DNA of 64,000 bases from Amphiscolops sp. MND2022 (Eukaryota), in contig OZ076409.1 in the NCBI GenBank assembly GCA_964187785.1, positions 54,996,001 through 55,060,000 on the forward strand, read 5' to 3'. Below the pieces are notes generated by a model, which was not told the DNA's origin, searched no databases, and saw only the letters and a program-made list of their open reading frames with translations. Numbering within the stretch: position 1 is the stretch's first letter; the number at the start of each line of letters is the position of its first letter. The position numbers and the translations under genes were made by a program. Shown here piece by piece: positions 3,515 through 51,135 of this stretch.

Positions 3515-5972
3515 TGTTACGACATATATTCGGGTCGTTTTGTGTAGAATTTATTCTGACTGATTTTGTCGGAGTGTAAAAGTTCCTAGTTTCGTTTTCC
3601 GTTTCCTCATCAAGGTTATCTCTAACATTTTCCCTCGTTTTAGGTTTGAGGAGTTCCAACATCTCCTTTTGAGTCTCGTCGAGGAGACTCTTAATCTCAG
3701 ATGTTATTTCTTCCTTCAAAGTAGCCCTTAAACTCTCCAAGAGGCTATCTTCAATTCGGGGCGATTTTGGTCTAGATGGGCACGCTACTACTACGTCCTG
3801 ATCCGAGGAACAGGGAACTTCCATTAGTATCGGCGAAACAAAACCTTCACTTACGTCTCTATCACCTTCTTGCTGAACATTCCTTCTTTTCTGGCTTCTT
3901 GTTGTTGACATTTTGCTGTAGAAAAGTTTTATCTTGAAGAATTGAATTTCTTTCAGAGAATATTTTCAAGCAGAGTTAGAGAATTAGAGTTTGACGAAAT
4001 TGAGAATTCAACTGAATCACACAATTACAAAAGACTGAGTCCCTCAGTCAAATAAAATCATCCTATATATACCCTCCTAGCATCATTTGATCACGAGCTG
4101 AAATCCTAATTTCCTTCGAACAATTAGTCATTTCCTGTATTTTCGGTGAAAAAATCATTTGTTTCCAATTTTACGTCGACATTTCGTCAATTTTTGAGAC
4201 ACGATGATCTACATCTTGTATTAGTCATCAAGCATAATCATATCATTTCATTCCGGCGTCCTTTTTATTTCCTCCCAAGCAGGAAGTAGATATTACTTCA
4301 GTCTGTCAAACCGGAAATGATTCCCCGTTTTACTGCTTTGGTTCGTTAGGAATTGACGCTGAGGTGACGCTGACGTGAACAACTAATGCTTGATTTTGAA
4401 TTTTAACTTGAGGAAAATGCTATGACTAATGTTTTCAGCCTTAGAATTGCTAATGATGCTAGGAAAAGTGGAAACGAAAATTATAGGACTAGCAACAATT
4501 TCTAAATTGGGCTCAATTTAGATGGTTATCAACTAATTAGAACAAGTCAACGAAGCATTAACGTTTACATTAGAGTACTAAATTAATTTAACTGCAACAC
4601 TTGGCTATTACAAAATTGTCTAAAAGGTTATGGAAATATGACGTGAGAATCATGAATTTCAGAGCGTGCAAATCCTCACAATTAAACCTTCATAAAATCA
4701 CGAGATTATGGGTTAGCGTCCTGACGTCGCCAATTTAGATCAACGGAGTAACACATCTAGTCACAATAATAGTTACAAATGCTAAGGAGTTCAAACATGG
4801 TTATCGCATACAACTGAGGCAACAATGAACACAGATATATTGAGAAGATACAAATGTAGACAAAACATTAGGAAAAATATGATTAAGTTATCAAAATATA
4901 GCTCTCTCTCCTGTTCATATTTCACTGTTGCACAGACACGGCCGACTGACGTCAAGTTGTTCAAATAGCATCCAAGGACTGTAATAGTTAATACAAAATG
5001 TACAGTGACAGCCTCCTCTCCTAGAATAAACTGTGACATCATATATTAAGAGTAGGAAAAACTCTAATTAGGTTGTTCTGCAACGTGATTTTAATAAGCC
5101 CGTAGACAAGCCGACGATGCCTGGACGCGAATTTTCAGGAATTGTTCTTATCTTTGTTGAACTAGTTAGAGTCCTTAAACGTTTCCTTTCCGTCAAATCT
5201 GTAATACCGATATTCATTTCACTATCTTGGATGGACTAAAACAGCTACTTTGATGGATTTTGGACGTAACGCGGACGTAAGCATTAGCATTGGCCTTAAT
5301 CTGCTGGTATTGGACGTAGCTTTGACGTAATTTTGGAGTGAAATCCAACTAGCTGTTATGGTTGTGACGTCACGCCGACGTCTGATTTAGAATACTTTCT
5401 GCCTCGTTAACTAGTTAGCGGCGGAGTGCTGACGTCACTATTATAGTAATATTTGCATGTACCTTTTAATATTTGTTTGCTTAGCGACGCGATACCGTCC
5501 TATTCTGCATTAATTGCTGTTCAAAGCGAAATTAAGTTGCCTTTCTTAGAAAAGGCTTAAATGTTTCGGTGTGTCATCTCATTGTATTTTCTATTTTAGA
5601 TCTGTTTGTTGTACGTTCCCGATTTGCAATTTTGAATGTGTTTTTGTTTAGATCAGTCTATGGTCTTTATTCTAGGACGTATTCCTAATTAAGTTTTCAG
5701 GTTGCGAATGTTTCTACTTTGACGTGATAAAAGCGTCCTGCCGGAAATGTATGAAATCATTTTGATTCATTTTAGTTTCTGTTTTCATTTTTGTTTAAAC
5801 TTTTCGTAAGTTGGGCGTTCGTTTCCGTATTTTTAGTCACAGTTTATTTCAAAGATAAGGTTTTAGAGTTACCAGTTAAAATAAGATTTGGGGAATCTCA
5901 AATTGCCTCCATGTCCTCTTCCGATCTTCAGTCATCGGCAACCACAAGCCAGACCGGGAGCGGGCTGTGACA
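3515..5972 (-). repeat. 3' LTR of B (2458 bp)
   Basis: Direct repeat of 17404-19859; includes a copy of the Gag N-terminus (ORF 3444-3911). Confidence 0.95.
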
Positions 5973-6576
5973 GGGCCGCTCTAGTAGGAAGATTGACGCT
6001 GCCCGGGGCTCTGAGTTGTGAGGTAATTGTCGGAGTAGTGGTGACTGGCTGTACTCTCCTCTCCAAATCGTTCAAAGGGCTTGCCTGCAAGAAATTTATC
6101 TTCCTTGGCGTTCCTGGCGTCGTGTTGAAGTAAGAAGAGGCGTCTTCTTGGTTCACCTTTTCAAGATATTCTGCCACTTTACTGCTGGTTATCGACTCTT
6201 TATCGTTTGCCGAGGTTTCGACAACAAATATGACAGATGACAATCTTTCATCTGGGCTCTCTGGAGAGTCGGCCATTACTACTTCTTCGGGACTTTCCGA
6301 TTGCGGGTACTGACCCGATTCCACAGTTTCGAAGCTCGTGTAGTGTTCGCTGAGTTTCATTCTTTTGCATTCAGCTTCCAGGGAGTCTAGAGAAAGTTCG
6401 AGAAATTCTTCCTCATCTGCAGTAGCTTCCGCCGACGAGTTCAGTATTTCGACAATTATTCTGGGGTATTCTTTGTTGGCCCTAGGTAACGGGGTAGAAG
6501 CCCTTGTGATCTCACCTTCCTCTTCGCTTGACGATGAGATGTCGATCAATTCGTATATATCTAGTAGATTATTCAT
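5932..6576 (-). CDS. Accessory sense ORF3 of B: acidic, Ser-rich, SIM-like motif, ends inside the 3' LTR
   Basis: 214-aa ORF containing ELIDISSSSEEE; same position and motif as ORF3 in C and D. Confidence 0.7.
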   Translation of the reverse strand: MNNLLDIYELIDISSSSEEEGEITRASTPLPRANKEYPRIIVEILNSSAEATADEEEFLELSLDSLEAECKRMKLSEHYTSFETVESGQYPQSESPEEVVMADSPESPDERLSSVIFVVETSANDKESITSSKVAEYLEKVNQEDASSYFNTTPGTPRKINFLQASPLNDLERRVQPVTTTPTITSQLRAPGSVNLPTRAALSQPAPGLACGCR

Positions 6577-6792
6577 CTTCTTTGTGAGGTTTCTTCCTTT
6601 TTGCAGCTGTCGTTCGTATTTAGTTGTTCCACAATGAATTTGGGATTAATTAGGATTAAGGAGAATATTGGGATAAATCCCTCCATTCTGATTGGTTAAA
6701 CAATCGTTTCAATCCTTTTTAATCTTCAGGTGTTGACGCTGTGCCAACGTCGTTTTTTATTGGCTGCAAATTGAATTAATTCGTTTAGCCAA

Positions 6793-6990
6793 GTTTGTCA
6801 ACGTTATGCTGACGTCATTTTCGCTAGCCTTAGCTAACTTTTGTTTTTGTCACCGTTATGATGACGTCATAATAGGTTATGGAATCGATTTCTGAACCCT
6901 GATATCCTTTTTTGCCGACGTTATGCCGACGTCAATTTCGCTGGTTCTCAACCAACTTTAGTTTTTGTCACCGTTATGATGACGTCATTT
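6793..6990. repeat. Four degenerate copies of TTGTCACCGTTATGATGACGTCA between the divergent accessory genes
   Basis: Copies near 6795, 6846, 6911 and 6963; CCAAT-like sequences near 6690 and 6759. Confidence 0.7.
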
Positions 6991-7006
6991 TTGAGTTTGT
7001 TTTCAG

Positions 7007-10000
7007 ATTCCCAGCTGTTTCTCGATAGACTCCCGTCCAATTGTTTCTGTTGTTGATCCTGGGGCCCAGAGTGGTCATGAGACTCAGTACGTGTTCACGG
7101 AGGGAGAAATGCGCCATAGTGACCCGGACAACTTCCGTTTGCGGGCAGTTGGTAAGTACTTTTTATTCCCTGACCCATTAAGCTTTTGTAAATGATACTA
7201 CTTTCAGATAGGCCTTTTCTGTTTCATATCTTCACAGCTTAGTTTTTCTTGACGCGTCGATGTTGGGATTGTACTTTTCTGTCAGAGCCCAAGGTGGTAC
7301 CTCCTCCTCCTCCTACACCTCCTGACGTAGGTTTGGATGACACTCCTGTGGTCAACACTAGTGTGGCCCCTTCTGTGGGTCCAGCTTGTACCCCCTGTGT
7401 TTCTTCTGTTCCTGTCTCTGGTGATGCTGAGACTCCTGATGTGTCAGGTTCAAAATCTGGCGTTACTCTTCCAGAGCCACCTGTTGGTTCTTCTTGCGGA
7501 GGCGAGATGACAACCCCCCCCCCCCGCAGGCAATGATGACGTTTTCGTGGCGACAACTCCGAGAACTGGGATCCTTAGTCAGACCTCCAGATCTCCTCGG
7601 TTGTCATCTTTCTTGCCGGGTTTTGGTAAAACTTTTGCTGCCCTGGCGCAATCAGAATCTCGGAAAAGAGGTAAGTTTGAAGTGTTATCTTGGTTTCTAT
7701 ATTGTGTGGTAGCTTTGTTGTTTCATTTTCCTCTTCTCTTTCCTCTCTTCTTGTAACGGTTGTAGTTTCGTTTGCATGATGTGTTGATGTTATAGTCGCG
7801 TCTACTGCTGCTGAAAAAACTGGGACAGGGTCTTCTGGCAAGAGAAAACGACAAGTGCACGTCCAGACGGCCAACTTGCAACTTGCTCATCTGACTGTGA
7901 GCGGTAATAGAATTTCTCTTTCTTGTAACCATAACTTAGAGAGTGGTGATGGCAGTTTGAGTATGGATCTATTTTGTTTGTAGATTCTGGTGATTGTACT
8001 GCTCAAGAAATCTCTGAAGTTAGCGATATTCCGGAGGCCGAACGTGCTGCAGTTGGACCTGTTCTGGCGAGTGAGTATTTGTATTATGATCGTGTCCATT
8101 GTTTCCTCTTTTTCCTTTCTTTTCTCATTGGTACGTTTCGTAATCGTCATTTGAGCGTTTTCTGTTGTTGCGCAGTTGTTATAGTCATGTTTTAGGTGGT
8201 GTTAATTCGTAGTTGTGTCGTTACATAGGGATTCAAGATCTCATGTCCCGAATGGAGAGTAGCCTGGAGGCTGTCGCCCTGCGTGAGAGTCCTGTCAGGA
8301 AGTATAGTAGTCGTCATCACTTGCGGAAAGACATGGTGGGCAATCATCCAGTCTTCAGCTTGTTCGTCAGTGGGGCCAGCAACGGGTCTGCATCGCGCTT
8401 CCACTGCATGATCTGTAAGCGCGATGTTTCGATGCAGTCTCGAGGTGCACGAGAGTTCGTTCGCCATTTCTCCGGAGATCACCATTGGACACGAGATGTG
8501 GCATACCGAGTGCAGCATGGTATGCCAGTCTTTGATCAATTGATGAAACCTCTCGAGTTAACGTCTGAACAGCGGGCTGAGTATCTTAGTCAGGACGCGG
8601 TTGAAAAAGACGAGGGTTTCAGTTTCACCGAAGATTTGTTGCCTGCATGCCCTCGGGTCGATTCGACGATTCCTCTCCTCACTATGGTGAATTGTGTCGC
8701 TGAATTGTGTAGGTGGGGTGGCAGCTACGTCTTGCTTCGTAAACTGTGGGGCAACTTCCGTGCCACTCTGGGGCCTGACAATCCCTTATACAGTCTCCAT
8801 TGGAACCGCCCTGAGACACTGGTCAGTAGGTTTTATAGTATTGTTCTTCAATGTACATAACGTAGTCGTCATATTTTGGTAGCTGGTTGGTAGTGTGGAT
8901 TGAGGGATTTGTGTTTCAGTCGTTGATTTGTCGTGCCTTGTTCCCTCGGGTGCTGCGTTTCATCACCTACCGTGTGACAGCTTTCAACTGCTACAGTGTG
9001 CGGTTTGAAGAGCGTTCTGATGGCCAGTATTGCTTCGTGCAAACTTGGGATGAAGAGACCTTTCTGGACATCTGCATCAACGTGGAGCCTCTGGGTCAGC
9101 GAGTGCCTCAGTCGGAGTTGTCGTCATTGTCGCGTATCATCACAAGTCTGCCTTCATCTCCCTTCCCCATCAGTATTCGTGGTACTGGCCCTTCAGTTCT
9201 GCGGGTGCTTAGCGACGAGCGTAGCGATGGTCATCGTTTTGTGTATGCCCGAGAGTTCTCCCCTGAGGTGTTCCTCCATTGCTATCGTTTGGCCCATCAA
9301 GAGATTTTTGGACTTTTGGAAGTCACCACTATGGTTGATTTCCTGATGCTGCGTCTGCGCGGGGCATTGCAGGAGCCCTGGATGGAAGACTTGCCTGAAC
9401 TTCGTCGCTGTGTGGTTGCCGGGAAAGTGACCTTCGATGAGCTTCGTGGGGTCGTGGCAGAGTTGATGTCAATCTGGGAGACTGTCAGGGAATACGTCCG
9501 GTACATGGGTCCCCGACACATCAAGAGTGAGTCCGACAAGGTGGGCATATTTTTGTTTCACGGGGGTATTAGTAGTCTTGTGGTAGGGTATCATCACTGT
9601 GACGGTTGGGCTAGATATTCATTCAGCTGTTGTTGTTTAGATGCGCGGCACTGACACTCTTGTCTATTCCGAGACAAGGAACAAATTGCGACTGGAGATG
9701 TTGCTTCATGTACTTGATCTGTGTAAGTTGTGTTTAGTTTTCCTTTTCATCGTTGGTATAGTCGGTCTTTTGATAGCTTGTGTAATAACGTGATCACTTT
9801 TGTCGTGTTTTTTGTCTAGGTGGCGTAGTCTTCGATAATTTGTTCTTATTTCCTTCTTGTGTTTAGATCATTGCACTTTCAAGAAACAGAGGTCTGGACG
9901 TGTTGATTACGCGTTCCATGCGTATAATGAAGTATGCCAGTTTGTGTACTGTTTGCTGACCCGTAGCCGCAAGTTGTCTAGTCTGCCACCTCTCAACGAT

Positions 10001-11181
10001 TGGGAATCGTACATGGATTCTTCGAAATTGGAGTCGTTCGAGAAGATTAGCAGTGACGACTTCTTGACCAATCATGAGTTCGGAGCTGAGTTACATTGTC
10101 AAGTACCAGCGAGGTATGCGAATTTCGTAATCGTTGTCGGGAATTCGTCGATCGTCTGGTTGACGTGATCTTGAGTCAGCAGGTCGTGTCCTCCGATTTC
10201 CTTCAGGGGCTGTATTGCTTCTGTCCTGAGTTGCTGCTAGAGGGGGACGATCGCCATATCTTCCAGCTGTTCTCTCGACTGGTTCGTGTGCTTGAGCGTT
10301 GTGGTTGTCTTTCTAGTAGTGATGCCCTGACTGGTCGTGAGGAGTTTGCCACATTTGTCGTCGATGCTAGGACGCGACATCGTGACTCGGAGAAAAGCGC
10401 GGAACAGATTAGAGATGTTACTACTTATATGCTTTCTGATTACAGTTTTATGTCGCGAAGGAGTCTGGTGCGAGTCTTGAAAGTATGTTGTTTGGTGGTG
10501 GATCGTCCTCGGAGGAAAATGCCCGAAATTGAGATTGACTTGAAAGATTGTGCTGTTCCTGCTGCCGTAGTGATGTCGTGTTTGAGGGGCGTTCAAAGTC
10601 ATGTGTCTTCTCCTGATTACAGACAGGGTGCTTTCTTCACTCAAGGCACAATGGAGAGTGTTCGTGATGCGATCGCTAATAGTCGCAATTTCATGTCGTG
10701 TGCTGGTTTTGATCCTTGGGAGGGCGTGTCGATTGGCGAACGTTCATCTTTCGTCCAGAAGTATTCGTCAGCTTTTGATGCCTACTTGAGCCGCAAGAAG
10801 AGCGAGGCTGCTAAACAACTACATAGTGCGAATCGACAGCCACGTCACGTTCAGTTCTCTGATTCAGGTGGTTCGGGCACGTCAAGTACCTGTAATTCTC
10901 CTCGTGCTGTGTTGCCGAGTTCTTCGTTTGCTGTTGCTTCTTCGGGGTCAGGTTCTGAAGTTGGGTCGTCAAAGCAGCGCTCATATACTGCCGAGTCTGC
11001 GTTAGCTGCTATTTTGGGACAGAAGAAAGAGGCGAAACCCACTGGTAAAGAGTCGGCTGTTCAGAAAGAGGCCTCCCCTAAACATGTCGTCAAGGATGCG
11101 GTGAAGGATCAGAAGAAAGATGCCACGAAGAGTCCAAAGCCGTCTAAAAAACGGTCGGGTTCCAAAACAGAGCGCGATTGA
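7007..11181 (+). CDS. Antisense spliced accessory gene of B: zinc finger plus hAT-transposase-like protein (frameshifted in this copy; 5' exons uncertain)
   Basis: FHCMICKRDVSMQSRGAREFVRHFSGDHH finger. GT-AG introns at 8822-8919, 9541-9640 and 9723-9866 join the ORFs in frame; further donors at 7152, 7671 and 8071. Homologous to the genes in C and D. Confidence 0.85.
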
Positions 11182-11473
11182 AGCTGATAACTGAGACTTT
11201 GGTATTGCTGCTATTTTGAAAACTCTAGTGATAGTCTTTGTAGTTGTATAGCTCATCCTGATATATCGGGTTGTGTTTGCTGTTTATTTGATGATTTTAT
11301 TTTGCTGATGTTAGAATTAGTTGATGATGGATGGCTCTTCAGTAAAATAGTATAGAAGTATTTGGAGTCAATAGAAAAAAAATCCAGAAAACTGAAGAAA
11401 AAGGCCGTAGTATGCCAATAATTAAAGTTGTCAGGTCGGTTCGATCTGGACACTTAGTGATACTGTTTTCTTT

Positions 11474-14400
11474 TTAGTGAGTCGTAGTGATAGCGTCAAG
11501 TCGTCTGAAGTCAGGATTAGCGTTAGGTTTAGGATTAGGTCGCAGATTGTATTTCGCTATTTTCCTTGGGTTGTATCCGACAGCTGTAGGCGGTGATCTT
11601 GGGGGAATAGGTGGAATTTCAATGGGTGGGGGGCGTCGTATGTATGGGTTATCCCCCGCGTCTGTTGTGAGATTTGAGAAGTCCGGCGACGGCGGCACTA
11701 CATCGTTTGTATCTTCGATATAATTTTTTGACGTTTGCGGCGTTGTGTCTTCGTCATTATTATTTGGCACTTCTTGTATCTCTACGTGGTAGTTGTTGCT
11801 TGTGCTTTTTGATGTTTTGTGTTCATCAATCTGCTTGCCAAAATCCAATTCCCATGATACCGCATACCTTTCGTTGTGTGAGACTTTAACGTCTGGATCG
11901 GGAAGGTAGTCGTTGGCTCGTACCGTGACGTCAGGCAAGCGTTGTTCAGGTAAGTAAGGTCGTATTCGGACTCTATGTAGCGTTTGCGTGTATCTCGTGC
12001 CAAGTTTTCGTATTGTGTAGTTGTTGTTTGATAATGCCTTTATCACAATATACGGTCCTGTCCAGATGCAGTCTTGGAACGCGAACTTAGTCGACTGATT
12101 GTCGGCTTTCGGGTTCAAGATGTAGCAGTAGCCATTTACTTTAAGCGGGGCTGCTGACGCTTTGTGGTCGTAATATTGTTTGTATTTGAGGTAAGACAGC
12201 ATGATGTTGTCCTTCGCTGTCGCTCGCACTTCGTTGATTTGTTTTTGTAGTTGTTCTGCTATGTCCGAGTTAGGGGTGGTTTTCCTTTTTGGCTTGATGC
12301 CCAGTTTTAAATCAAGAACGTTGTAGGGTATACGTCCGTGGAATACTGTGGATGGTTCGCAGCCCAGTGTTTCATGATATGTTGTATTGTAATTCATGAC
12401 TGCAATTTGAACGTATTTGTGCCACATTGAACGTCTTTCGCCCGTCGATATTTTGAGAGCCGTTTTGATTGAAGCATGAGTTCTCTCCAAAATTCCGATT
12501 GTTTGTGCATGTTTCGTAGACGCATGGCTGATCTGGATTTCGAGTATCTGAATTATTTCGGCAACGACTTCTGATCGGAATTGAGATCCTTTGTCTGATA
12601 GTATCAGTGTTGGCAAATATGCGTGTCTTGTCATGACGTCGACAATGCATCGTCCGATTGTTTTCGCTGTGACGTTCTGTGTTGGGTATGCGAATAGGTA
12701 GCGTGAAAATACATCAATCATCGTAACAATGTTTTGATATCCTGCAGAATTGGGTAGGTTCGGCAATATATCGATTTCAAGAATGTCCTCCGGGCCTAGG
12801 ACGTGTTCTGTATTGTTGATCATCTTCGGTCTGATTTGACAGTTGTTGATTCGTTTGTATTTGATGCAGTCTTCGCATCTCATCACCCACTGTCCACTGT
12901 CTGATCCGTTTTGCTAGTCCGGGGTAATAGTATTTTGATCTGCATTCGTGGATCATTTTTGTTATCCCTGGGTGTTTTCCCATTTGTCCGTGAAGTGCTT
13001 CCAAGAGTTCAGTAATCAAATGCTCAGGGACCAGTATTTGGTGGTGTGTAACCTGACCGCACTCTCCGTAGTATTTGCGCATGAGTATTCCATCTTTGAC
13101 TATGAGTCTGTTTTCATGGACCAGGAGACGTTTTGCTGTCGGGTCAGTTTGTAAGAGATGTTTGTCAAATTCTTCGCATATTAGCTTCTTTTTAATTGCT
13201 TTGAAAACTAGGTTTGAGTCTTGTTCTACTCTGATGCGTGCGTCCTCTTTTATTGCCCCAAAGGTGTAAGAGGCTTTATTTATCGGGATTGGTGTCGTTT
13301 CTTTTATGGCTAGTTTTATTTTTGTCGTCTCTTCATCGCGCGCATTTTGTCTTGCTTGTTCTTTTTGTAGGAGGATTTCTTCTTCGGTTTCAATCGTCTC
13401 ATCTGGAAGGAAGAAAAGTTGTTCCTCATCTGCGACGTCGGTAGATTGTAGGTTGACTTGTATTGGTCGGATTGTGATGTCCTCTCTTATTTTCAATTCG
13501 ACTCTTTCTTTGGGAAAGAGTTCAATGCGTGATAGAAAGTCGGCTGCAGTGTTTTGCGTACCAGCGACGTGCATTATGTGGAAATTGAATTGTAGCACAT
13601 AGTCACACGCGTTCCACAGCGTAGGTGGTATGGCTTTCGTTTGAAAGAAACGCGTGACTGACCTATTGTCGGTCATTACAAGTGTCGGTAGCGTTGTTTC
13701 CCACAGTATGTGGCTGTATTCTAGAAATGCGTGGTAAATTGCCAAGAATTCTTTGCAATAGATAGACATTTTTAGTTGAGCTGGGGAAAATACTTTCGAT
13801 CCGAATGCGACTGGGGCGAACGTTTTCCTTTTGAAATTGATTTTTCTGTCATTGTCCTCCTCGATCATTAATGCATAGCCAGAGGCTCGGAAGCTGGCAT
13901 CCGTCATTAGGACGTATTGCCGTCCTGTGATTGGTTGTTTGAGAGCCAATCCGCAGGCTTGCGACAGCGCTGCGTTGATCGCCTTGTAATGGTCGAGTAG
14001 TTCTTCAGTGATTTTGATTTGTTTGTCTGCTTTCAGCAGCTCATAGAATCCGAGTAATTTTTCAGATAAGCGCGGGATGTAGTTGCGATAATAATTGACA
14101 AAACCGATATATCTTTGTACTTGTTTTTTTTTATTTCGGAAATCGTACATTTGCTAAGAATTTTTGTATTTTATGGTCTTGAGGGGCAATTCCTTGCGGG
14201 GTGATTGTTCTTCCAAGGAATTCAACTTCAGTCACTCCAAAATGGCATTTGTCGATAGATAGTTTAAGTCCTGCTTGTCTGATGCATTCGAAAACAGATC
14301 GTATGTTACGTATCAGTTGCGTCACTGAATTTGCCGCAATTCCGATGTCATCCACATATTGTGCGCACTGGTCTGCTTTGATCACTTTATCTAAGTATTC

Positions 14401-16370
14401 TCTCATGAAACTTGAGAATGCTGATAAGGCTCTGCTCAGTCCCTGTGCTAGGCGTTTGTAGGCGAACGTCCTGCTTGCGAAATTGAATGCCAGCATTTCA
14501 ATGGACCTTTGATCTGCCATTTGTAGGCAGTGGTATGCTTGTGAGCAGTCTAATTTGCAAAACAACTTTTTACCAGCTAGGTGTTGAGCTGCGTCTGACA
14601 AGGTACTAACTGGGTGGTTGTTGTTGATGTAGTCATCTGAGATCAATGCGTTTATCTTTCGCAGGTCGACAAGTAGACGCAATTTGCCATTTGGTTTGCG
14701 TTGTGCAAAAATTGGGCTTGCATATTTTGAAAACGGCAGGGTCGTTATGATGCCGTATCTGTGCATTAGTGCCATATCAACTGTTAGGTCTTTTTTCAAA
14801 TTTATTGGTACTGGCAAGCTTTGCGTGTAGATTGGGCGTTCATCCTTCGGGGTTAGCTTAACCTTGAAGTTGTTGTTGATGCCAATGTCAAGGCGATGAC
14901 GCGCGAAGATGTCGTTGTATTCGATTATTGTTTGTTCAAGTTGTTTCCTGTCATTACCTTCGATTTGGGAGCCTTCCCATTGGAACATGTCAAGGAATTT
15001 CTTTCTTGATTCTTGGTCTTTTGTTGGGTCTAGTTCTTCTTTCTTGATGAGTTCACGGATTTCTTTCAGTATTCGCCGCTGGATTGGCGTGTGCTCTTCT
15101 TCATTTCCTGGGTTCTCAGGTGTGGGAAACCAGATATTTTCGTCACTTTGTTCAGTTTCGTTGGATTTCATGAGTTCATTTACATACAAGTGGGTGTCAT
15201 CTGGATCTTCTAGCAGTTTGAGTGCAGCGGCGTCTACTGGACGTATTTGTTTCGTGTCCTCGGGTTTGAGGATTTGTAGTTCCGCTAATTTTGTGTGATT
15301 CTTTATTGTGTGAGGGAAATCCGTTAAGTTGGCGATCCGGATGTTGAGTCTTTTGTTGTGGGCTGTCGCTAGTGCTGGTGCGACGATGATTGTTGCTGTT
15401 TCATCAAATTGTGGCAGTGGTTGTACCGCACCAGTGACGTCGTTCATGTTTGTGGTTATTACTATCGCGTTCACTGTTGTTGTTTGTTGGGGCGGAAGTG
15501 TTTGATTGCCTTCTGCCATTATTTGGAGTGGTTTCGGATTGCATTTTTTCAATTCGTCTGTCATGGCTAGCGTCATTTCGACGTGCGGGAAATTGATGGT
15601 TCCGTTGGCGGTGTCAATTACTGCTTGGTGGTTTCTCATGAAGTTCAGTCCTATGATAGGAAATGACGTTTTCGATATTATGACGAAGGTATCTGTGAAG
15701 GTGTATGTTCCAATGTTGAATTGGATGTCCGCTGTGGCTATTGGTTGCTCTAGTTGTGCGTTCGCGCATTCAATTTTGAAGGGTGGTTGTGGGTATTCTT
15801 TTATGACACAACTGTCACTATTCATTTTGATCGCATTGTAGTCTGACCAGGACATGGCAATGATGAACGCGCCTGAATCGACCAGTCCATCCATTGTTAT
15901 TTCGCCGAATTCGAGTGGCAAGTACAGCATTCTTCGTCTGCATTTGAGGACTATGGTGGAGTGGAGAGGTATGTATGTTTCCCCATCCTTTTCAGCTACG
16001 TACTCCTTGATTGAGTTGAGTGCTGTGGGAAAATTGTCTAGGAACATAAATGTTTTGGTGGGATCATGATTATGTTCTTTGTTCGGTTGTGACGATGAGC
16101 AGTCGTCGTGGGCGTTTTCTTTTGTTCCGACTGGTTTGCAACGGGGAGTTCTCTGTAATCTTTATCGTGGGTGTAGGTGTCTTCTTGTTCAGTTTGCGAG
16201 TATGGCCTTTTTATAGAAGCGAGTGCTTGTCGTCTTAGCCAGTCCTCTGTTGGTGTACCGTTGCATTCAATCGTTGTGTTGTTAACGTATGTGGTAGGGG
16301 GATCCTCGGTTGAATACGCCCTCGCGTCTACTTTTTCCCCAAAACGCAGGCGCGGCGTAATTAGTTTTTT
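11474..16370 (-). pseudogene. pol: pol of B (PR-RT-RNase H-integrase), frameshifted near 16050, 14140 and 12890
   Basis: LVDSGA (protease); YVDD (RT); TDASFRASG and TDNRS (RH); HPG...CEDC, IDVFSRY, SDKGSQF, LERTH and GPY (IN). Confidence 0.95.
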
Positions 16371-17800
16371 GGTTCGGTGGTAAAGTCGGTTGTTGTCATT
16401 TGGGCCGGCGTGTCCCTTTTTTGTTCTTGTGTAGTGTGACGTTTTGGACGCGGGTCGTTGGCAGCGTTGGCTCCATTCCAATAATTTTCCGTCTTGTGGG
16501 GCTTGCCGCACGTGTCGCATTTAAGTGATTTGCCTGAGTTGTTGTTGGTTTGGCCATTGTTTCTTTTGGTTTGCATCCATTTATCTCTTTTTATTTTCCT
16601 ACATTCCGCTTTGTAGTGTCCAAATTTGTTGCAGTAGAAGCAATACCCTTTCTTGGCGTTTTGCGTCGTATTGTCGGCTTGTTTGGACTCAGTGTTTGGT
16701 GGGGCTGGTTCTACTTTGTTTAGTGGTACTAGGGTCACCTCGTCCGGCGCACCGAGGCCGTTAAGTCTCATTTCCCTTTCTAGGTGGAGTACGATGTCGT
16801 TGTAGGGTTTGTCTTCAAGATACGCCCTGTTTAGTATTTTTTTTACGTGGTCTGGCATTTTTGCAGAGATCGCCTTATCAATAAATTGTTGGGCTTTGGA
16901 GCCGAAGGCTTCTTTGGCGGTTTTTTGAAGTCCATCCAGAAATTCGTGGAGTTTTTGGTTGGAGGGATCGAATTTGAGCGCATCCCATTCGCATCTTGCT
17001 TTGGCCATAGACAGATAGTCTCCGAAACGTCGTTTGAAGATCGTCATGATTTCATCAAGGGAATCCTTTTTCGTATCTTCGATATTGCGGAACGCCTCTA
17101 AGGCATCTCCTCTGGGTAAGGAGTGGAAATAGTTTATTTTTTGGATTTCCGTAAGATGCGGGTACATTTTGAAATTATTGCGAAAAAAGTCTTCGAAAAC
17201 CTCGAATTTTTCCGACTTCCCGTCGAAGGTCGGGAGTGACGCCGTTAGTGCTTTTGGCATGGGCAGTGTAGTGCCATCATTTTTATCCGTTGCAAATAAA
17301 GTCCTTGCCACTACTGGACGTTCTTTTGATGTCGGTTGACTTTGGGACCGGGCTTTTGTTCTTTTTGGCTGGTTTGTGGAGTCAGTTAGGACTCCTGTCA
17401 CCATGTTACGACATATATTCGGGTCGTTTTGTGTAGAATTTATTCTGACTGATTTTGTCGGAGTGTAAAAGTTCCTAGTTTCGTTTTCCGTTTCCTCATC
17501 AAGGTTATCTCTAACATTTTCCCTCGTTTTAGGTTTGAGGAGTTCCAACATCTCCTTTTGAGACTCGACGAGGAGACTCTTAATCTCAGATGTTATTTCT
17601 TCCTTCAAAGTAGCCCTTAAACTCTCCAAGAGGCTATCTTCAATTCGGGGCGATTTTGGTCTAGATGGGCCCGCTACTACTACGTCCTGATCCGAGGAAC
17701 AGGGAACTTCCATTAGTATCGGCGAAACAAAACCTTCACTTACGTCTCTATCACCTTCTTGCTGAACATTCCTTCTTTTCTGGCTTCTTGTTGTTGACAT
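16361..17800 (-). CDS. gag: Gag of B, 479 aa, starting inside the 5' LTR
   Basis: Open ORF with CFYCNKFGHYKAEC knuckle; highly similar to Gag of A. Confidence 0.92.
   Translation of the reverse strand: MSTTRSQKRRNVQQEGDRDVSEGFVSPILMEVPCSSDQDVVVAGPSRPKSPRIEDSLLESLRATLKEEITSEIKSLLVESQKEMLELLKPKTRENVRDNLDEETENETRNFYTPTKSVRINSTQNDPNICRNMVTGVLTDSTNQPKRTKARSQSQPTSKERPVVARTLFATDKNDGTTLPMPKALTASLPTFDGKSEKFEVFEDFFRNNFKMYPHLTEIQKINYFHSLPRGDALEAFRNIEDTKKDSLDEIMTIFKRRFGDYLSMAKARCEWDALKFDPSNQKLHEFLDGLQKTAKEAFGSKAQQFIDKAISAKMPDHVKKILNRAYLEDKPYNDIVLHLEREMRLNGLGAPDEVTLVPLNKVEPAPPNTESKQADNTTQNAKKGYCFYCNKFGHYKAECRKIKRDKWMQTKRNNGQTNNNSGKSLKCDTCGKPHKTENYWNGANAANDPRPKRHTTQEQKRDTPAQMTTTDFTTEPKN
17391..17403 (-). 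promoter_or_regulatory. Primer-binding site TGGTGACAGGAGT (tRNA-Leu-like, tentative)
   Basis: Abuts the LTR CA end; same or near-identical motif in A, C and D; resembles the complement of tRNA-Leu 3' ends. Confidence 0.8.
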
Positions 17801-19859
17801 TTTGCTGTAGAAAAGTTTTATCTTGAAGAATTGAATTTCTTTCAGAGAATATTTTCAAGCAGAGTTAGAGAATTAGAGTTTGACGAAATTGAGAATTCAA
17901 CTGAATCACACAATTACAAAAGACTGAGTCCCTCAGTCAATTAAAATCATCCTATATACCCTCCTAGCATCATTTGATCACGAGCTGAAATCCTAATTTC
18001 CTTCGAACAATTAGTCATTTCCTGTATTTTCGGTGAAAAAATCTTTTGTTTCCAATTTTACGTCGACATTTCGTCAATTTTTGAGACACGATGATCTACA
18101 TCTTGTATTAGTCATCAAGCATAATCATATCATTTCATCCCGGCGTCCTTTTTATTTCCTCCCAAGCAGGAAGTAGATATTACTTCAGTCTGTCAAACCG
18201 GAAATGATTCCCCGTTTTACTGCTTTGGTTCGTTAGAAATTGACGCTGAGGTGACGCTGACGTGAACAACTAATGCTTGATTTTGAATTTTAACTTGAGG
18301 AAAATGCTATGACTAATGTTTTCAGCCTTAGAATTTCTAATGATGCTAGCAAAAGTGGAAACGAAAATTATAGGACTAGCAACAATTTCTAAATTGGGCT
18401 CAATTTAGATTGTTATCAACTATCTAGAACAAGTCAACGAATCATTAACGTTTACATTAGAGTACTAAATTATTTTAACTGCAACACTTGGCTATTACAA
18501 AATTGTCTAAAAGGTTATGGAAATATGACGTGATAATCATGAAATTCCGAGCGTGCAAATCCTCACAATTAAACCTTCATAAAATCACGAGATTATGGGT
18601 TAGCGTCCTGACGTCGCCAATTTAGATCAACGGAGTAACACATATAGTCACAATAATAGTTACAAATGCTAAGGAGTTCAAACATGGTTATCGCATACAA
18701 CTGAGGCAACAATGAACACAGATATATTGAGAAGATACAAATGTAGACAAAACATTAGGAAAAATATGATTAAGTTATCAAAATATAGCTCTCTCGCCAG
18801 TTCATATTTCACTGTTGCACAGACACGTCCGACTGACGTCAAGTTGTTCAAATAGCATCCAAGGACTGTAATAGTTAATACAAAATGTACAGTGACAGCC
18901 TCCTCTCCTAGAATAAACTGTGACATCATATATTAAGAGTAGGAAAAACTCTAATAAGGTTGTTCTGTAACGTGATTTTAATAAGCCCGTAGACAAGCCG
19001 ACGATGCCTGGACGCGAATTTTCAGGAAATGTTCTTATCTTTGTTGAACTAGTTAGAGTCCTGAAACGTTTCCTTTCCGTCACATCTGTAATACCGATAT
19101 TCATTTCACTATCTTGGATGGACTAAAACAGCTACTTTGATGGATTTTGGACGTAACGCGGACGTACGTATTAGCATTGGCCTTAATCTGCTGGTATTGG
19201 ACGTAGCTTTGACGTAATTTTGGAGTGAAATCTAACTAGCTGTTATGGCTGTGACGTCACGCCGACGTCTGATTTGGAATACTTTCTGCCTCGTTAACTA
19301 GTTAGCGGCAGAGTGCTGACGTCACTATTATAGTAATATTTGCATATACCTTTTAATATTTGTTTGCTTAGCGACGCGATACCGTCCTATTCTGCATTAA
19401 TTGCTGTTCAAAGCGCAATTAAGTTGCCTTTCTTAGAAAAGACTTAAATGTTTCGGCGTGTCATCTCAATGTATTTTCTATTTTAGATCTGTTTGTTGTA
19501 CGTTCCCGATTAGCAATTTTGAATGTGTTTTTGTTTAGATCAGTCTATTGTCTTTTTTCTAAGACGTATTCCTAATTAGGTTTTCAGGTTGCGAATGTTT
19601 CTACTTTGACGTGATAAAAGCGTCCTCCTGGAAACGTATGAAATCATTTTGATTCATTTTAGTTTCTGTTTTCATTTTCGTTTAAACTTTTCGTAAGTTG
19701 GGCGTTCGTTTCCGTATTTTTAGTCACAGTTTATTTCAAAGATAAGGTTTTAGAGTTACCAGTTAAAATAAGATTTGGGGAATCTCAAATTGCCTCCATG
19801 TCCTCTTCCGATCTTCAGTCGTCGGCAACCACAAGCCAGACCGGGAGCGGGCTGTGACA
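17404..19859 (-). repeat. 5' LTR of B (2456 bp)
   Basis: Direct repeat of 3515-5972; followed by the PBS. Confidence 0.95.
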
Positions 19860-19864: not shown

Positions 19865-20111
19865 TGTTATGGAAACGTCCTGCCGGAAATGTATGAAATC
19901 ATTTTGGCTAAGTGTTTCTCTTTCCATTTTCATTTTTAGATTTGCGCACACTAGACGTATTTCCATTTTCAGTCACAGTTTATCTTAATCATTAATTACA
20001 GTTTGAGTCAGTATCTGAAATACCTGTTTGCCAATTTTGCTGTACAGCCGTGCCCACGTCCGTATCCTACTCGTCTACAGCCGCAATCCAGTCCGGGAGC
20101 GGACTGTGACA
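19865..20111 (-). repeat. First 247 bp of the 5' LTR of A
   Basis: Continues 3514 across the TSD; similar to the start of the B LTR; ends TGTGACA on the plus strand. Confidence 0.85.
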
Positions 20112-30045: not shown

Positions 30046-31649
30046 ATGTTTTATCAAATCAAATGGAATAAACGGTTCAAATTGTTATACAATTTTGAAT
30101 CAAGAATTGCTACAAGATTAGAAAGTTGTAAGGCGAAGATCAACTGTTTTCAGAAAATTTAAGACCAAAATGGTGAGGTTTTCTAGATTTTTGTAGGTTT
30201 ATGGGTTTTATATAAATTGCTCCAACACATTTTCGCGTTACCCTTTTCCCGGTTTTTGGATAATTATCAAATAATTTATGGAAATCTAGCATCATCGAGT
30301 TTCTTTAATTGATCATCAATAACTGTTGATTTTCAGAGTTTCTTTCATATATTGCCGGTAGCTACCCCATATAGGGTAACTGAATTTTAATTACTCATCA
30401 TCAAAATACATTATGGTTGTAGTCCATTCAGATTCATCATGTGAAGATTTCACACTTTGTTGTATGAATCATCTTTCTCAAAATTGTGGAATTTCATTCT
30501 TTCACTAGTAGATGTGTAATATTCAACTCAGCAGTATTAGTAGTGGTTCACATCATAAACTGCTTACAGAAAACATTATAATGCATCATAATTTCTCATA
30601 TCACCGTTAATACTTCACCATGCTGTCTTTTATATTTTTTCGCATAAACACTTTATGCAGTTTCACTTTTAATTCCGCATAATCCCGTTATGCTGCATTG
30701 TTACATTTCCTTCTCTATACTATAACACATTGTTGTTCGCGATAGCGCAGGACCATTATGTTGTTTCTAATACAAAACAGCATAGTGCACTTTCACTGTA
30801 GCAGTGTGTTGCGTGTTAATACGCAAAGTCCGTCAGTTTCCTTATATGGTATGGATTCCTCCAATTTAGTCATTCTGGCAGAAATGGCCAAACTGAGTAC
30901 TTGCTTTTGACCAATCAGATTTGAGATACACTGAAAACGCCATTATTGACGTCATCCATTTGCTTTATTGCCTTCTCGTTAATTGCCACGCCTTCTGTTT
31001 CCAGTTGCTTTGATAATTTTGATTTCTTGATAATTTCAATCTACACTATTAATTCTCAGTCTTCATAGTTTTTACAATTTTTCAGAGTCTTCAAGTCATT
31101 TGTAGTTCCGTCATCTTTATTTTCTCACATTTCTAGTTCGAATTATCCAATTCCGCTTTCCCAATTTGTTATCCTGGATTAGTTTTGTTTGGTTTTCATT
31201 CTTCCAACACTGCCATTTTCACAGACCTTTTGTTTTGCAATTGACTACAGCGTTTTGCAGTTTGTGTTATGGATCCACTGGGTGAAGCGATGTCTGGCTA
31301 CAAGGAAGGAACCGATTTGCCAACACATGGTTTGTATATTTCCAACCTTTCTTTAATAGATGAAAATATCTCGGTATTTGGTTTCATATTGGACTTTCAC
31401 AAGTGTCGCTTGAAGACTTCCTGTTTCCGTCGCTGAACAAATTTTATTTTCACATCCGCTCTCTACAGGTCCATTTTCAGATTTTCTGTTTCAAGTTGTG
31501 AACAATTTTTTCGAGTTAACTCTGATTTCAAAGTAGGAAGTGATCAGTTTCCCACAATTTAGTCGGATAATATCTGTTTTCAAGTTGATTTTCATCGACC
31601 TTTGTCATCTTTATTTCCGATTCTTTATGTGTTCCAGCTCATACCGATT

Positions 31650-34600
31650 CTCAACACTCTCACCAGAGACAAACATCTTCCAACGAATTGACGGTTTTGA
31701 CGTCTGTTGTTTCCCTCCATCAATCTACTCCTGAACCAGAGCGTTCTTTCTGTGAAACTGTTAATGTTACTCTCGACCAAGACGGGATTAAACACTCGTT
31801 TGACCACAGCATGACAAGTCCCAAAGAACCTGTTAGTTTCCTTGCCACTTCCATTGATTCTAATTTTCAACTCGTTTTTGATGTGACTGGAGAGCAACCC
31901 GATTGCGTCAATCCAATCGCTCCTGCAGGTGAAAGGAGATCTCTACCTGATGAATGTTCTTCACGGGCGACTACTCCTATGTTGGAAGGAGTCCATTCTC
32001 GAACTTCTCCTACCACACGTTACTTGGGTCAACTTGCAGTGACAGCCCCCACCGAGCAAGAAAGCCGAGAACCAGCTACCAATGCTCAATCGCTTCGAGT
32101 AACACAATTTGGCAATTTTGTCACAAGTTCCGACTTAGAAGCACTGGAGCAGAGACTTGAAACTCTAGTCAGTACAATTATCGCACTACCGTACTGATGC
32201 CCACTTGGTTCGAGAGCATCGAATTAGATTAGAAACACCAGGAATTCCACTCTATGATAAAAATGAGCGAGAGATAACTAGAGTTGCTCTAGACGAAGCT
32301 CGGGAAAAAACGGAGCAGACGTTCCCAATCACTCCAACTTTGGGCGAACGTCACCTGCTGCCAGGACAGAGGGAGTTGCCAAAAGACACAGAAATTCTTG
32401 ATCCCTCATCAGTTGCATGCTCCCAGATGAGGCTCCTCCTGCTAGGACTCCAATCAGGCGGAGAGTTGGATCTATTAACTTCACTCTTGTTCAATTTGAA
32501 TGTCGAGACACAGGGGACTTCTAGATTCCCGCAGTACGACTGGAGACAGGAACGTGTGTTATCTGACTGAGTTGGACATCTATTTATTATATATTTAATT
32601 CGTATGTTTCACAGGCAATACTCGTCTACATGTTTCACGAGTTACTACGATATTCTGCCACTTCTATTGGTCAGCGAGGCTTGTGTTCCCTTCAATTCAG
32701 TTCCTCGACTAGATTTGCTCAGGTTAATTTGGCCTTCTGGTCTGGGAATGTGTACAATAGTCTCTGCCTTTCCGAGTTTCCCAACAATCACCAAACAGCG
32801 CCAAAAGTCCTCGATGTCATCTCTTCTTTCCTTGCTGTTACAAGCAATCCACCACTGTGTTTTCTCTGCTCGGGTTTGATGGACGGGTCAGTAAAACATT
32901 GACTACTGAACTGGACAAATCCACAGCCATTTGCATCGTTGCTACTTTCGGCTATGAAGATTTATACAAAATGCTCGCAGGCCCATGTGTCAAAATCCTG
33001 GACCGCTATAACATACACAGTGTTTTACAGTTTCTTTTGATGAAACTCCGGACAGCTTTGGGATCAGCTTGGCTCAACAACTTGCAGGAGCTTCGAGAAA
33101 AAAGCATTTGCATTGTTTAACTATTATTATGTCCTTTCCTAACTGTGATTAACACTCCTAAGACGTCTTCAGAAAACCGCATATTCCCGCATATTTTGTT
33201 GGATCTCGACCATAGTTTCTTCATTTCATTATGCTGCTACTCTGCATAGTCATTGTTTTCTGCAAACTGCATAGCTTTTATCTTCATACTGCTTTTATTC
33301 TGTTTGTAGTGTGGGTATTTTCCTATGCGACTTTTTCCGAAAGCCGCATAATCACATCTTCTATGCCGTTCCAATACGGAAACTGCATGGGTGCTTCTTT
33401 ATGCTGTTTTCTTTCGAAAACCGCATGAGTATTCCTTTTATGCTGTTTTCTTCCAAAAACAGCATGAACTTTTCTTCTATGCTGACTTTTTTACGGAGAC
33501 CGCATGAATGCTTCTTTGTGCTGTTTTCTTCTGAAAATCGTATCAACTTTTCTACTATGCTGTTTCCTTCTGAAAAACGCACGAACTTTTCTTCTATACT
33601 GTTTCTTCCTGGAAACCGCATGAACTTTTCTTCTATGCTGTTTCCTTCCGAAACGACGTGATTATTCCTTTTATGCTGTTATCTTTCAAAAACGACATGA
33701 ACTTTTCTTCTATGCTGTTTTCTTCCAAAACAGCGTGATTTATTCCTTTATACTGTTTTTCTTGAATTATGCTGATTTTACAGTTAATCCGCATAGTCCG
33801 CATATCTTATGCTGTATGCTGTTCAGCATCCTATACTGTATTCGGAAGACATCATAATGCGTCATGTCTTAAGTTCATTTCCAATGCTATTAGTTCTCAC
33901 AGGCAAGAATTTGCTCTTTTAGGCGATCTGTAGCTTCGAATACAGTTATGGCAAGTGCGCTATTCTTCTTGGACAACTGTACCAGAATTGGCATCATGTG
34001 GTTGCTCATCTCCGTCTCACTGACCGGATCAAGGCTTTCAAATACGACATGAAAGAGGTAATATTCGTTTTCGAAATTCCAGATATCGTTGTTCTAACAT
34101 AGTTTTAATGGTCAATCTTTGTTGTTTCAGCCCAAAAGTTTGGATGAGACGATATTTAAAGACAAGACTTATCCCGCCAAGTTGTTTCTAGTACGGAATG
34201 TGCTTCTTCATTGTTAGCCTTTTCTATTCTTTCCATTCTTTTAATGTCTGGTTCCTTTTCTTAATCTGAAAATGCTTCAGACCAATCGGCTTTCAAAGGA
34301 GTCACTGGGATCGCCTCAGACGGCTTCCGACTCTACAGCTCTTACGCCACATTTGTGTATAGTTAGCTCCAGACTATATTGCCAGATTCCTTCTTGGGGG
34401 ACATCTCTGACTGGGACCGATTCTTATCTATCGACTTGTCTTCAGATCTTCCTTTCAAAAGCGTCACTGATTTTCTTCGCAATAAAGACTTTGCCGACTT
34501 AGTCAACAAGAGTGATCTACCGACGCCAACCCATTTCGTCGAACAAGCACTGTGTTTTTATAAAAGTCTATGTACTTTGCTTCTGAAACACAGCATCCGC

Positions 34601-35512
34601 AAGTCGAAGTTTATCCGAGGAATGTCTGTTTTCGACGAAGCTGTGATATTACATGGGCGAGAAGAGGACTACGAAGAAGAATCAGACCAATTGTGCGATT
34701 TCCTCATACAGCGGGACTGGATATCAAGTTCCATCAAGCCACTCATCCTGAGTGAGTATCGGTCTTTTGTTGAGAAGTTCAGGTCTTGCGAAGTACAGCA
34801 CGACACAGACTGGGTTACCTTCATGTCCGGTTATTATGAGCTCCAATGTCGCACCGATTTATTCTCTGTATTCAAATTGTGTTGCCTTGGAATTTCTAGC
34901 TCTATTTGCATTCCACCTGTTTTCACCGTTGCATTACCTGACTTGGCTTCTGACAACTGTAGTTTTACTTCTGCAGTTAGGAGTGTTCAGTCTTCTTTGG
35001 TCGCTATTCCCAACGTTTTAGGGTTATTTTCCAATCCTAGAACTGTTGCCCCTATTTTTTTCTTGCTCGGAAAAGGAAGGAGTTTGTTGGAAAATCCTGA
35101 TTATTCTGTTTGGGACGTCAGTTCCAGTTGTTCATCTCGCCGACGACGACTACAGAATAAGTTTGTGTCCCGTTTCACCTGCACGGTTACTGATGAAGAA
35201 AGTGCATGGACTTCATTGGATGTTGATCCTAAACCTTCTGGTTCAACTTCTTCGCCAACTCATCGGGTCACTTCTTCTACTAGTAAATCGCCCAAAACTC
35301 TTCTACCCAGTTCGAAGTTTGCTGTTCCTGGGCCAATCCCGGTTGGGTCTTCCGGTGGGTCATCAAGAGGTTTCCGTCAGACTCTGCAATTGGCTACTGC
35401 TACTTTGGCTGTTCCGCGCTTCGTCAGCGAGGTTCCGTTTCTACCCCCTGACCAAAATAAATCTGCGAAGAAGCTTTCTATGAAGAAGAGACCATCTCCC
35501 GGTGGTAAATAA
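31650..35512 (+). pseudogene. Antisense spliced accessory gene of C (first half of the zinc finger deleted; stop at 34364; 5' end uncertain)
   Basis: HYRTDAHLVRE near 32185 matches HYKTEGHLRKD in D. Exons 33923-34057, 34131-34212 and 34281-35512 are separated by GT-AG introns. Confidence 0.82.
33345..33770. repeat. Minisatellite, about 39-bp unit, about 11 copies, intronic
   Basis: Unit approximately CGCATGAACTTTTCTTCTATGCTGTTTCCTTCCGAAAAC. Confidence 0.85.
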
Positions 35513-49933: not shown

Positions 49934-51135
49934 GAACTTTGCCTTTATGATTTTCTTAGCAATTTCGTGAGAAATTGGAATGGGCTTTGAGATCTTCAAG
50001 CTCTATTAGTCAAATGTTTTGAAAGTTTCAGGAGTGAGAATGACAATTTCTTCTCTCTAAGGTCGCTTGAAATTCCTTCACGTCTGGTGATTTTTCCCCG
50101 GGCTTTTGTTTATCCCGGTAACGTTTTCGTCGATAAATTTTCCTAAACATCCTTTGATGATCGCAGTCAGCCGCTCTGTTTACATCATCACTTCAGTGAT
50201 TTGCCCGACGCGGCGAAGAGTCATCAATGACACCGCTGAGTGTTTATCTCCACTTGATATCCACTTGAGAATTTCAAGAGAAGGTGATGAAGTTTTAAGG
50301 CCACGCGCGGCGCATCGCCGCGACAGCCAATAGGGATCGCCCACACAGTCCGCTTTTCAAAATGGCGGAATTAAAAATAATAATCCAAATAAGGAAATAA
50401 TAAAATGACTAAAAATAATGAAAAAACTAAGGTAATAAAATAATGAAAATGCATGTTTCGAAATATAAATAATGTGGATTTCTCTGGCAGATTCCATCCA
50501 CAAAATAATTCTCATAATTGTAAAAATATTTGACATCAAATCCAGTTTGCCACGAACTCCAACTTTGCTACTGCAATCATTTTCGTCTTCTTCTATTGTC
50601 ATTGTTACATTTTCATATTCGTATTTGTTCATCGTTTATTTAGTATAGTAGTCCAAGTCTCAATTTTATACTTCTTTCATTATCTCACAGAACTTCTGTG
50701 ATTCTTCTGTCACTTTTCATCCCTTCATCTTGGATCGTTGTCTAATTGCCGGACTCGTCCACATCTTCCCTGTCACTATCCGGACCCACTCTTCCTTCTT
50801 CACAGCAGTGAGTTTACCTAATTCGGACAGGTGGATCATCAGCCTTTCCTGTTCTGGGTTGCAGTACAGTTTCAATTCAACAAGGACTATCATAACATTC
50901 TCGTTCAGCCTTCAATTATCCAACAACTACAGGTAAGCTATCTGGTCTTTTAATTTTGAGCGGAAATAAGCTTGATCAGGGCTTTTCCTCTCGTTCATGT
51001 ACTTCCTGTCCATTTTCGTCAAGACAGTTCAAACGTCCTGTTCTAATCTTTTCACTTCCGGAAGATTTTACTGCGGTTTTCATGGACTCATATTCAGGAA
51101 GTTGTCCGCAACAATTTATCTCTTTTCCTTAAGGT

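Follow-up and report, generated by a model that had tools for sequence, protein, structure and literature searches.

The stretch of DNA analysed here, referred to as the window, comprises 64,000 nucleotides of the genome of Amphiscolops sp. (contig OZ076409.1, positions 54,996,001 to 55,060,000), part of a 1.07-Gb assembly. It contains three complete Ty3/gypsy long terminal repeat (LTR) retrotransposons, all on the minus strand (elements 1, 2 and 3 at 3516-19859, 27009-43531 and 47530-63372). Each of them harbours an additional gene on the plus strand, antisense to gag-pol, in the interval that separates the integrase stop from the 3' LTR. We propose that the product of this gene descends from a hAT DNA transposase and is catalytically dead, an assignment that we consider very probable; we classify the protein as hAT-derived rather than as a hAT transposon. 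The parts of the gene in element 1 and its homologs in elements 2 and 3 are these:

8229-11181, plus strand: spliced antisense gene of element 1, between pol and the 3' LTR of the Ty3/gypsy element
7007-7151, 7286-7670, 7796-7903 and 7984-8070, plus strand: tentative 5' exons for a low-complexity N-terminus, with splice dinucleotides in 10-19 of 20 clade copies
8229..8821, plus strand: exon A, with a BED-like zinc finger (8405-8485) and then a helical region where a hAT dimerisation domain would sit
8405 (element 1) and 52386 (element 3), plus strand: finger C-x2-C-x16-H-x5-H
8920..9540, plus strand: exon B, predicted RNase H-like core and beginning of the insertion domain; catalytic aspartates not conserved
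9641..9722, plus strand: exon C, short and helical
9867..11181, plus strand: exon D, predicted helical insertion domain followed by a C-terminal region that lacks ERxFS and by a basic tail of low complexity
8992, 9034 and 9169, plus strand: motifs YSVRFEERSD, FVQTW and ISIRGTGPSVL of the element 1 gene
9460, 10207 and 10465, plus strand: motifs ELMSIWETVREY, GLYCFCP and LVRVLKVCCL of the same gene
31589..35512, plus strand: homologous antisense gene of clade 2 in element 2 (27009-43531), broken
51133..55083, plus strand: homologous antisense gene of clade 3 in element 3 (47530-63372), broken

The original prediction had placed the gene at 8380..10740. A gene does lie there on the plus strand, with borders that reach further out on both sides, to 8229 at exon A and to 11181 at the end of exon D. 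The motifs quoted in that prediction all occur in the window, on the same strand and in the order given, and their alternative versions belong to the homologs in element 2 (32684-34859) and element 3 (53013-54688). The three genes are mutually homologous at 24-26% identity (tblastn E 9e-11, 1e-10 and 8e-15); the finger motif was not found in element 2, where exon A is partly missing. At least 19 of 20 clade copies retain each of the seven splice dinucleotides bounding exons A to D (acceptor and donor of exon A in 19 each, acceptor and donor of exon C in 20 each, acceptor of exon D in 19) and the phases are compatible, those of exon C matching both neighbouring exons. The profile position of the donor after exon A is unchanged in 54 of 57 loci spanning all three clades of the gene. 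The C/D border is crossed in one frame by the library proteins P0082, P0084 and P0143, and P0084 additionally crosses the B/C border with matching spacing. The window copy carries a frameshift near 10,100, with the first in-phase stop at 10166, and in its first two tentative 5' exons the predicted phase is interrupted by stops. Some clade 2 copies (L087:1322-3454, L091:1183-3213) have a first conserved intron that is free of stops and keeps the frame, and exons A and B form a single open reading frame (ORF) there.

How widespread is this gene? For each element, a genome search with its exon D returned ~6,000 first-look candidates, and 150 of these were scored; these figures are not copy numbers, and the copies examined here were taken from the best-scoring matches, a choice that biases the share of open frames among them. 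Exons A, B and D were present in order in all 60 of the 60 10-kb loci fetched, and the integrase gene lies just downstream on the opposite strand, head-to-head, in 55 of these and in 13 of 14 further loci. Gene copies are found on all 13 large contigs. A quick tree divides the antisense gene into three deep clades that match three clades of pol (patristic r 0.94, 35 loci), and this correspondence suggests one old acquisition by the lineage. With its integrase neighbourhood and its retention in the clades, the gene is an antisense accessory ORF of LTR elements. Judged by substitution rates, it is also under strong purifying selection, with an estimated ratio of nonsynonymous to synonymous substitutions (dN/dS) of ~0.03-0.06 where measurable. 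Among 15 pairs synonymous sites are mostly saturated, with dN 0.03-0.35; summed ratios where dS < 2 are 0.027 for exon A (2 pairs), 0.056 for exon B (3 pairs) and 0.061 for exon D (2 pairs), compared with 0.036 for integrase (IN; 12 pairs) and 0.028 for reverse transcriptase (RT; 11 pairs) at the same cut-off. The protein tree of exon D has a length of 13.7 against 1.48 for RT plus IN, and is thus about nine times longer, which means that the protein changes about nine times faster than RT and IN do. A profile search of 1.84 billion representatives gave 1,220 matches, and the ten that were looked up are unnamed ENA proteins. The family is likely to occur in other species, because P0082 and P0099 reach a best identity of only ~30% in the Amphiscolops genome. 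Longer spliced relatives were sought among 8,000 candidates and none was found, which is weak evidence. One very young element (L076 with L201, G000:C6:58940000-58950500), whose LTRs are 99.9% identical, has lost pol but still contains a portion of gag and an antisense gene with an open frame; this is a single case. The idea that pol-less copies constitute a non-autonomous family was rejected: L076 is such a copy, but 13 of 14 relatives have pol.

The case for a hAT origin is built on two separately folded exons that pick the same protein, the Hermes transposase, in adjacent ranges. Exon B was modelled with AlphaFold from the window sequence and a 138-row alignment (predicted local distance difference test, pLDDT, 78.5), and exon D from a natural open-frame copy with 20 rows (pLDDT 71.8). 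The topology predicted for exon B is helix, three strands, helix, strand, helix and further helices. In Foldseek, Hermes occupied ranks 1-7 of 350,542 chains for this model (best E 1.9e-3, probability 0.99). VIA placed its residues 1-198 onto Hermes 152-347 (Z 5.2-6.5, whole-model root-mean-square deviation, rmsd, 12-14), and the core 1-111 onto Hermes 152-266 with an rmsd of 3.4 over 101 aligned residues (Z 6.1). For exon D, VIA ranked Hermes first of 48,161 entries, residues 1-225 falling onto 365-579 (Z 5.3, rmsd 4.1, 155 aligned). The two Hermes ranges are adjacent and in order, and exon C fills the gap between them. ESM Atlas returned for exon D, as top matches, Dimer_Tnp_hAT and FAM200/GTF2IRD2 clusters (0.87-0.89), all of the hAT group, which we treat as a lead only; exon B gave no usable match there. 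With hhalign, exons B and D are placed collinearly and in the expected registers on a Tip100-like hAT profile (P 0.035 and 0.093, respectively). The C-to-H spacing of the finger equals that between C54 and H71 of Hermes, in which the helix before the finger histidine is reported to read DNA (PMC10368747). Across the genome, C-x2-C-x16-H is present in 52 of 60 loci and H-x5-H in 50 of 60, the helix ahead of the finger histidine reads G-x-x-E-x-x-R/S-H in most loci, and Pfam zf-BED weakly matched one of 24 family members (E 0.028). Basic clusters lie ahead of the finger and at the C-terminus of the protein. A homodimer prediction for exon A residues 100-174, run without an alignment, gave no answer either way (score 0.01). 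Taken together, an N-terminal BED-type finger, a helical region and a predicted RNase H-like core, helical insertion and C-terminal region follow one another in the order seen in Hermes (PDB 4D1Q, 8EDG). The RNase H-like/hAT fold that the original prediction had anticipated was therefore recovered, at modest scores.

Several observations weigh against this origin. The fold scores are modest: in a wide VIA search of exon B, Hermes came at rank 17 among many RNase H-like folds (rmsd 11.9 over the whole model), and these other folds, which match only the first 110 residues, scored equal or higher; the exon D Z of 5.3 is tied within 1 with the rows that follow; and Foldseek of the exon D model found nothing. 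The hhalign P values are weak, that of exon D lying within the range of column shuffles. Hidden Markov models of exons A, B and D did not rise above decoys against 120 Tip100-like hATs, and Pfam and PDB sequence searches gave no hAT match; the hAT subgroups compared were Tip100-like and Ac-like only. The same models did not exceed decoys against the hAT loci of the Amphiscolops genome, and no close donor was found. Genome searches with PF14291 and PF18658 had no match anywhere and are uninformative. The genome does contain ordinary hATs, in several families whose frames are long and open (L125-L129, L133, L150-L151); they are Ac-like, Tip100-like and others, none of them detectably close to the antisense gene. 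Could the likeness be convergence, a gene of other origin having combined a common finger, an RNase H-like fold and helical bundles? The lack of a significant sequence-level match and the mid-range Z scores speak for this, but the protein named beforehand is chosen by two separately folded exons, whose matching ranges are adjacent and correctly ordered, and the language-model search independently gives hAT clusters. We regard convergence as very improbable.

The hallmarks of an active hAT transposase are missing from the protein. The catalytic residues of Hermes are reported as D180, D248 and E572 (PMC2533014), and the corresponding sites were assigned from hhalign and structural offsets, not from residue-level superposition. 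At the first site, E makes up at most 33% and D at most 15% of any column. The column in best register with the second site is 94% G; two places further along, in an alternative register, D reaches 31% (clade 2). For the third, D stays at or below 38% and E at or below 22% in every column of the whole exon D region 205-252. A full D, D, E triad is absent from every clade in either register, column counts that agree with the loss of catalytic residues claimed at the outset. ERxFS occurs in none of 150 relatives versus 110 of 120 hAT controls. Unlike hAT transposases, the protein also has ~15 extra residues ahead of the last helix and is carried within another element. CxxH and RW, both motifs of hAT transposases, are not retained, as the positions mapped by offset hold non-matching residues. 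The W of ELMSIW, earlier read as part of the RW helix, appears by structural-alignment offset to belong to the helix after it. No terminal inverted repeats (TIRs) flank the gene, in agreement with the original prediction: the longest exact inverted matches around it in the three elements are none, 10 and 9 bp, and of 200 shuffles 200, 179 and 192 gave matches at least as long. The broken window copy and the frequent nested insertions of the region might suggest a hAT transposon that is still active or was nested recently, or else neutral debris, but these readings can be set aside given the absence of TIRs and DDE triad, the fixed position in 55 of 60 loci, the conserved splice sites and a dN/dS far below 1.

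The gene behaves as a unit separable from its carrier. Pairs of elements that are nearly identical in LTR, RT and IN diverge in the antisense gene, and identity steps at the gene borders; on the strength of these comparisons, old, diverged alleles (~60% DNA identity) have moved between near-identical LTR/pol backbones. In clade 1, L060 and L069 have LTRs that are 96-98% identical, with 99% identity in RT and 92% in IN, yet their antisense genes are only 60% identical; for L061 and L067 the figures are 95-97%, 92% and 98%, with 67% in the gene. Among 21 clade 1 copies, or 210 pairs, an inner LTR identity of at least 90% is combined with a gene identity below 80% in 20 pairs, and an IN identity of at least 95% with a gene identity below 80% in 11. 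The step at the gene borders is also present in clades 2 and 3.

The gene also resides outside LTR elements. The five of 60 loci without integrase comprise one pol-deleted LTR element, three seemingly truncated or interrupted LTR elements and one DNA transposon:

G000:C2:29298730-29334035 (L215-L214-L195-L175-L196): EnSpm/CACTA-like transposon, 35.3 kb, carrying the hAT-derived gene

We class this second carrier as a CMC/EnSpm element from its TIRs (~35 bp, starting CCC), its short target duplication (2 bp in four of five copies) and its EnSpm-type transposase (DUF1258 E 3.9e-9; Transposase_21 and DUF4218 below cut-off). It has no gag or pol of its own and no LTRs. The five copies compared are mostly 94-99.8% identical and contain two weak SET-like ORFs and dispersed 88-bp tandem arrays. 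A first allele of the hAT-derived gene has eight full-length matches at 97-100%, five of which were checked as EnSpm; a second, with 71-72% protein identity to the first, occurs in three of 12 further loci, the other nine being LTR-type. Both alleles group within the LTR-borne copies of clade 3, and behind each of them comes a remnant of the segment that lies downstream in the LTR element, so that a transfer from retrotransposon to DNA transposon is likely, either twice or once with later exchange. In that LTR subclade the 88-bp unit is present about twice, immediately 3' of the gene, and long dispersed arrays of it are found in the EnSpm-like element. In another EnSpm copy (L222-L223, G000:C3:8.31-8.33 Mb) a 16-kb gypsy element is nested, a possible entry route for LTR sequence.

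What might such a protein do for its carriers? The most likely role is that of a DNA-binding anti-silencing or transcription factor. This fits best because the gene would be useful to an LTR element and a DNA transposon alike, evolves fast under constraint and accompanies repeated motifs in its carriers. We envisage that a hAT element inserted once, in antisense orientation, into the ancestor of the lineage. Antisense introns stay in genomic RNA, so that an intron-bearing gene is copied whole. The TIRs and the DDE triad would then have been lost, and the finger and predicted fold retained under purifying selection. The finger may bind short motifs in the non-coding DNA of the element, with the dead transposase body as a scaffold. 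Since help of this kind would not depend on reverse transcription, the gene could be exchanged as a cassette among elements and be taken up by the EnSpm-like transposon, if the direction of transfer is as proposed. That the protein is a nuclear, sequence-specific factor keeping its carrier transcribed against host silencing is a prediction to which we give an even chance. In the LTR and upstream regions GACGTC is enriched 3.7-fold in clade 1 and ATGCGG 8.6-fold in clade 2. A single universal motif, CCGCAT, was rejected, being enriched in clade 2 and EnSpm only.

Some of the data do not sit easily with this role. No motif is enriched in clade 3, whose recognition helix is similar to that of clade 1 yet which has no motif in common with it. 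Gene identity is uncorrelated with the identity of LTR segments (-0.06, 0.22 and 0.02), not as strict co-evolution of protein and site predicts, and allele-specific binding to the cognate LTR consequently finds no support. The lack of gene-LTR co-variation and of a clade 1/3 motif weighs against a tight lock-and-key version, although the finger helix is little changed between swapped alleles. In addition, the EnSpm-borne gene copies are young, and open frames there are no proof of selection. The fullest form of the proposal, a disarmed class II transposase domesticated by a retrotransposon lineage as a tradable anti-silencing cassette and captured twice by EnSpm, which amplified neighbouring 88-bp binding-site arrays, is accordingly put forward as a tentative and rather doubtful scenario.

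Two other roles are each unlikely, to a similar degree. The protein might act inside the retrotransposition cycle, binding cDNA ends or the pre-integration complex and aiding nuclear import, protection or integration. The basic clusters noted above, retention across all three pol clades and an adjoining integrase in 55 of 60 and 13 of 14 copies suit such a role, and a similar function has been suggested for plant antisense ORFs (PMC7264820); against it, an EnSpm-like element devoid of LTRs, gag and pol carries two alleles, and alleles are exchanged regardless of LTR or IN sequence. Alternatively, the gene could encode a self-limiting or competitive factor: a copy-number repressor, an excluder of relatives or a dominant-negative poison of host or rival hAT transposases. 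Many old alleles coexist in one backbone, a diversity that would represent self/non-self types, the position is antisense and hAT elements are numerous in the genome. The carriers, however, occur in great abundance (~6,000 first-look candidates per query) and are young, their LTRs being 96-98% identical, and divergence from resident hATs beyond profile detection makes mixed oligomers unlikely. Distinctly less probable than either is a role in integration targeting, in which the protein would tether the integrase to particular places in the genome, a function the original prediction had entertained. The DNA-binding finger and the location of the window copy in the LTR of a relative favour it, but only one of 14 left flanks matches clade elements, no common flank sequence is evident by eye, copies lie on all 13 large contigs, and gene and IN are freely swapped in the 11 of 210 pairs described above; the EnSpm carrier also disfavours it. 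Preferred insertion into related LTRs was rejected on the same one of 14 flanks.

The carriers in the window are Ty3/gypsy LTR retrotransposons by their LTRs, target duplications and domain order gag-PR-RT-RH-IN (PR, protease; RH, RNase H; Pfam). LTR pair identity is 98.0% in element 1, 96.2% in element 2 and 96.6% in element 3, and the 5-bp target duplications are exact in two elements, with one mismatch in the third. The remaining features of element 1 are the following:

3516..19859, minus strand: element 1, Ty3/gypsy LTR retrotransposon, 16.3 kb; LTRs 98.0% identical, TTCAG at both flanks, domain order as above
3516..5972, minus strand: 3' LTR
5932..6645, minus strand: second extra ORF, sense to gag-pol, acidic, without family match; weak homologs in elements 2 and 3
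11474..16161, minus strand: pol (protease, RT, RNase H, integrase); Pfam RVT_1, RT_RNaseH, Integrase_H2C2 and rve; several frames in the window copy
16361..17854, minus strand: gag; frame opens inside the 5' LTR and crosses the primer-binding site
17404..19859, minus strand: 5' LTR

The gag frame starts ~450 bp within the 5' LTR and passes both the LTR end and the primer-binding site. The second extra ORFs of the three elements (5932-6645, 28736-29704 and 49079-50002, minus strand) are sense to gag-pol, reach or enter the 3' LTR, are acidic and mutually weakly homologous, and gave no match in Pfam. Element 1 landed inside an LTR of an older relative, 76% identical, which occupies 1-3510 and 19865-20111 of the window and whose 5' LTR is split by the insertion. 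Element 2 has a 39-bp tandem array in an intron of its antisense gene (33330-33760) and repeats in its LTR (27935-28221), both rich in CCGCAT/ATGCGG.

Antisense extra ORFs are known in plant and fungal LTR elements, where origin and function are reported as unknown, and those of plants are thought to be nuclear regulators (PMC7264820, PMC11963269). Like gene23 of Grande, RIRE2 and TRP28 of Retand in plants, the gene described here lies antisense between pol and the 3' LTR and is conserved in most copies. The plant ORFs are reported to be of unknown origin and unlike other transposable elements (TEs), whereas the present gene is multi-exon and traceable to a class II transposase; Pfam searches gave no Transposase_28 match for it. 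Hosts are reported to have reused hAT transposases as DNA-binding regulators, among them ZBED1-6, FAM200 and GTF2IRD2 (PMC3606216). Those are single host genes, whereas the antisense gene is kept by, and moves with, other mobile elements. VANC of the VANDAL Mu-like elements is described as a TE-borne anti-silencing accessory gene with fast divergence and tandem repeats in the non-coding DNA of its carriers (PMC10398659). Our gene shares these traits, anti-silencing being ascribed to it by analogy, but VANC, whose reported ancestor is a cellular MAIN-like protein (PMC13547354), has no sequence or fold likeness that we could find to the antisense protein. The ORF3 genes of bdelloid rotifers are likewise reported as accessory ORFs common to unrelated retroelements (PMC5408684); they are esterases and exonucleases shared among retroelements, whereas here a transposase derivative occurs in elements of both classes, I and II. 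In the literature searched, which omitted most subscription journals and Repbase reports, no LTR element was described as carrying a gene of hAT descent. The swapping of diverged alleles within LTR/pol backbones and an EnSpm-like transposon carrying two alleles are new.

With these findings, an antisense extra gene of LTR elements gains a traceable origin in a DNA transposase, and domestication of a transposase appears possible not only by a host but by another transposon. That the gene passes between elements, and even from one class to the other, suggests a common pool of accessory factors from which TEs may draw. The carrier lineage is apparently among the most abundant element lineages of the Amphiscolops genome, and its antisense gene is a testable candidate for TE-encoded anti-silencing outside the known VANC system of plants.

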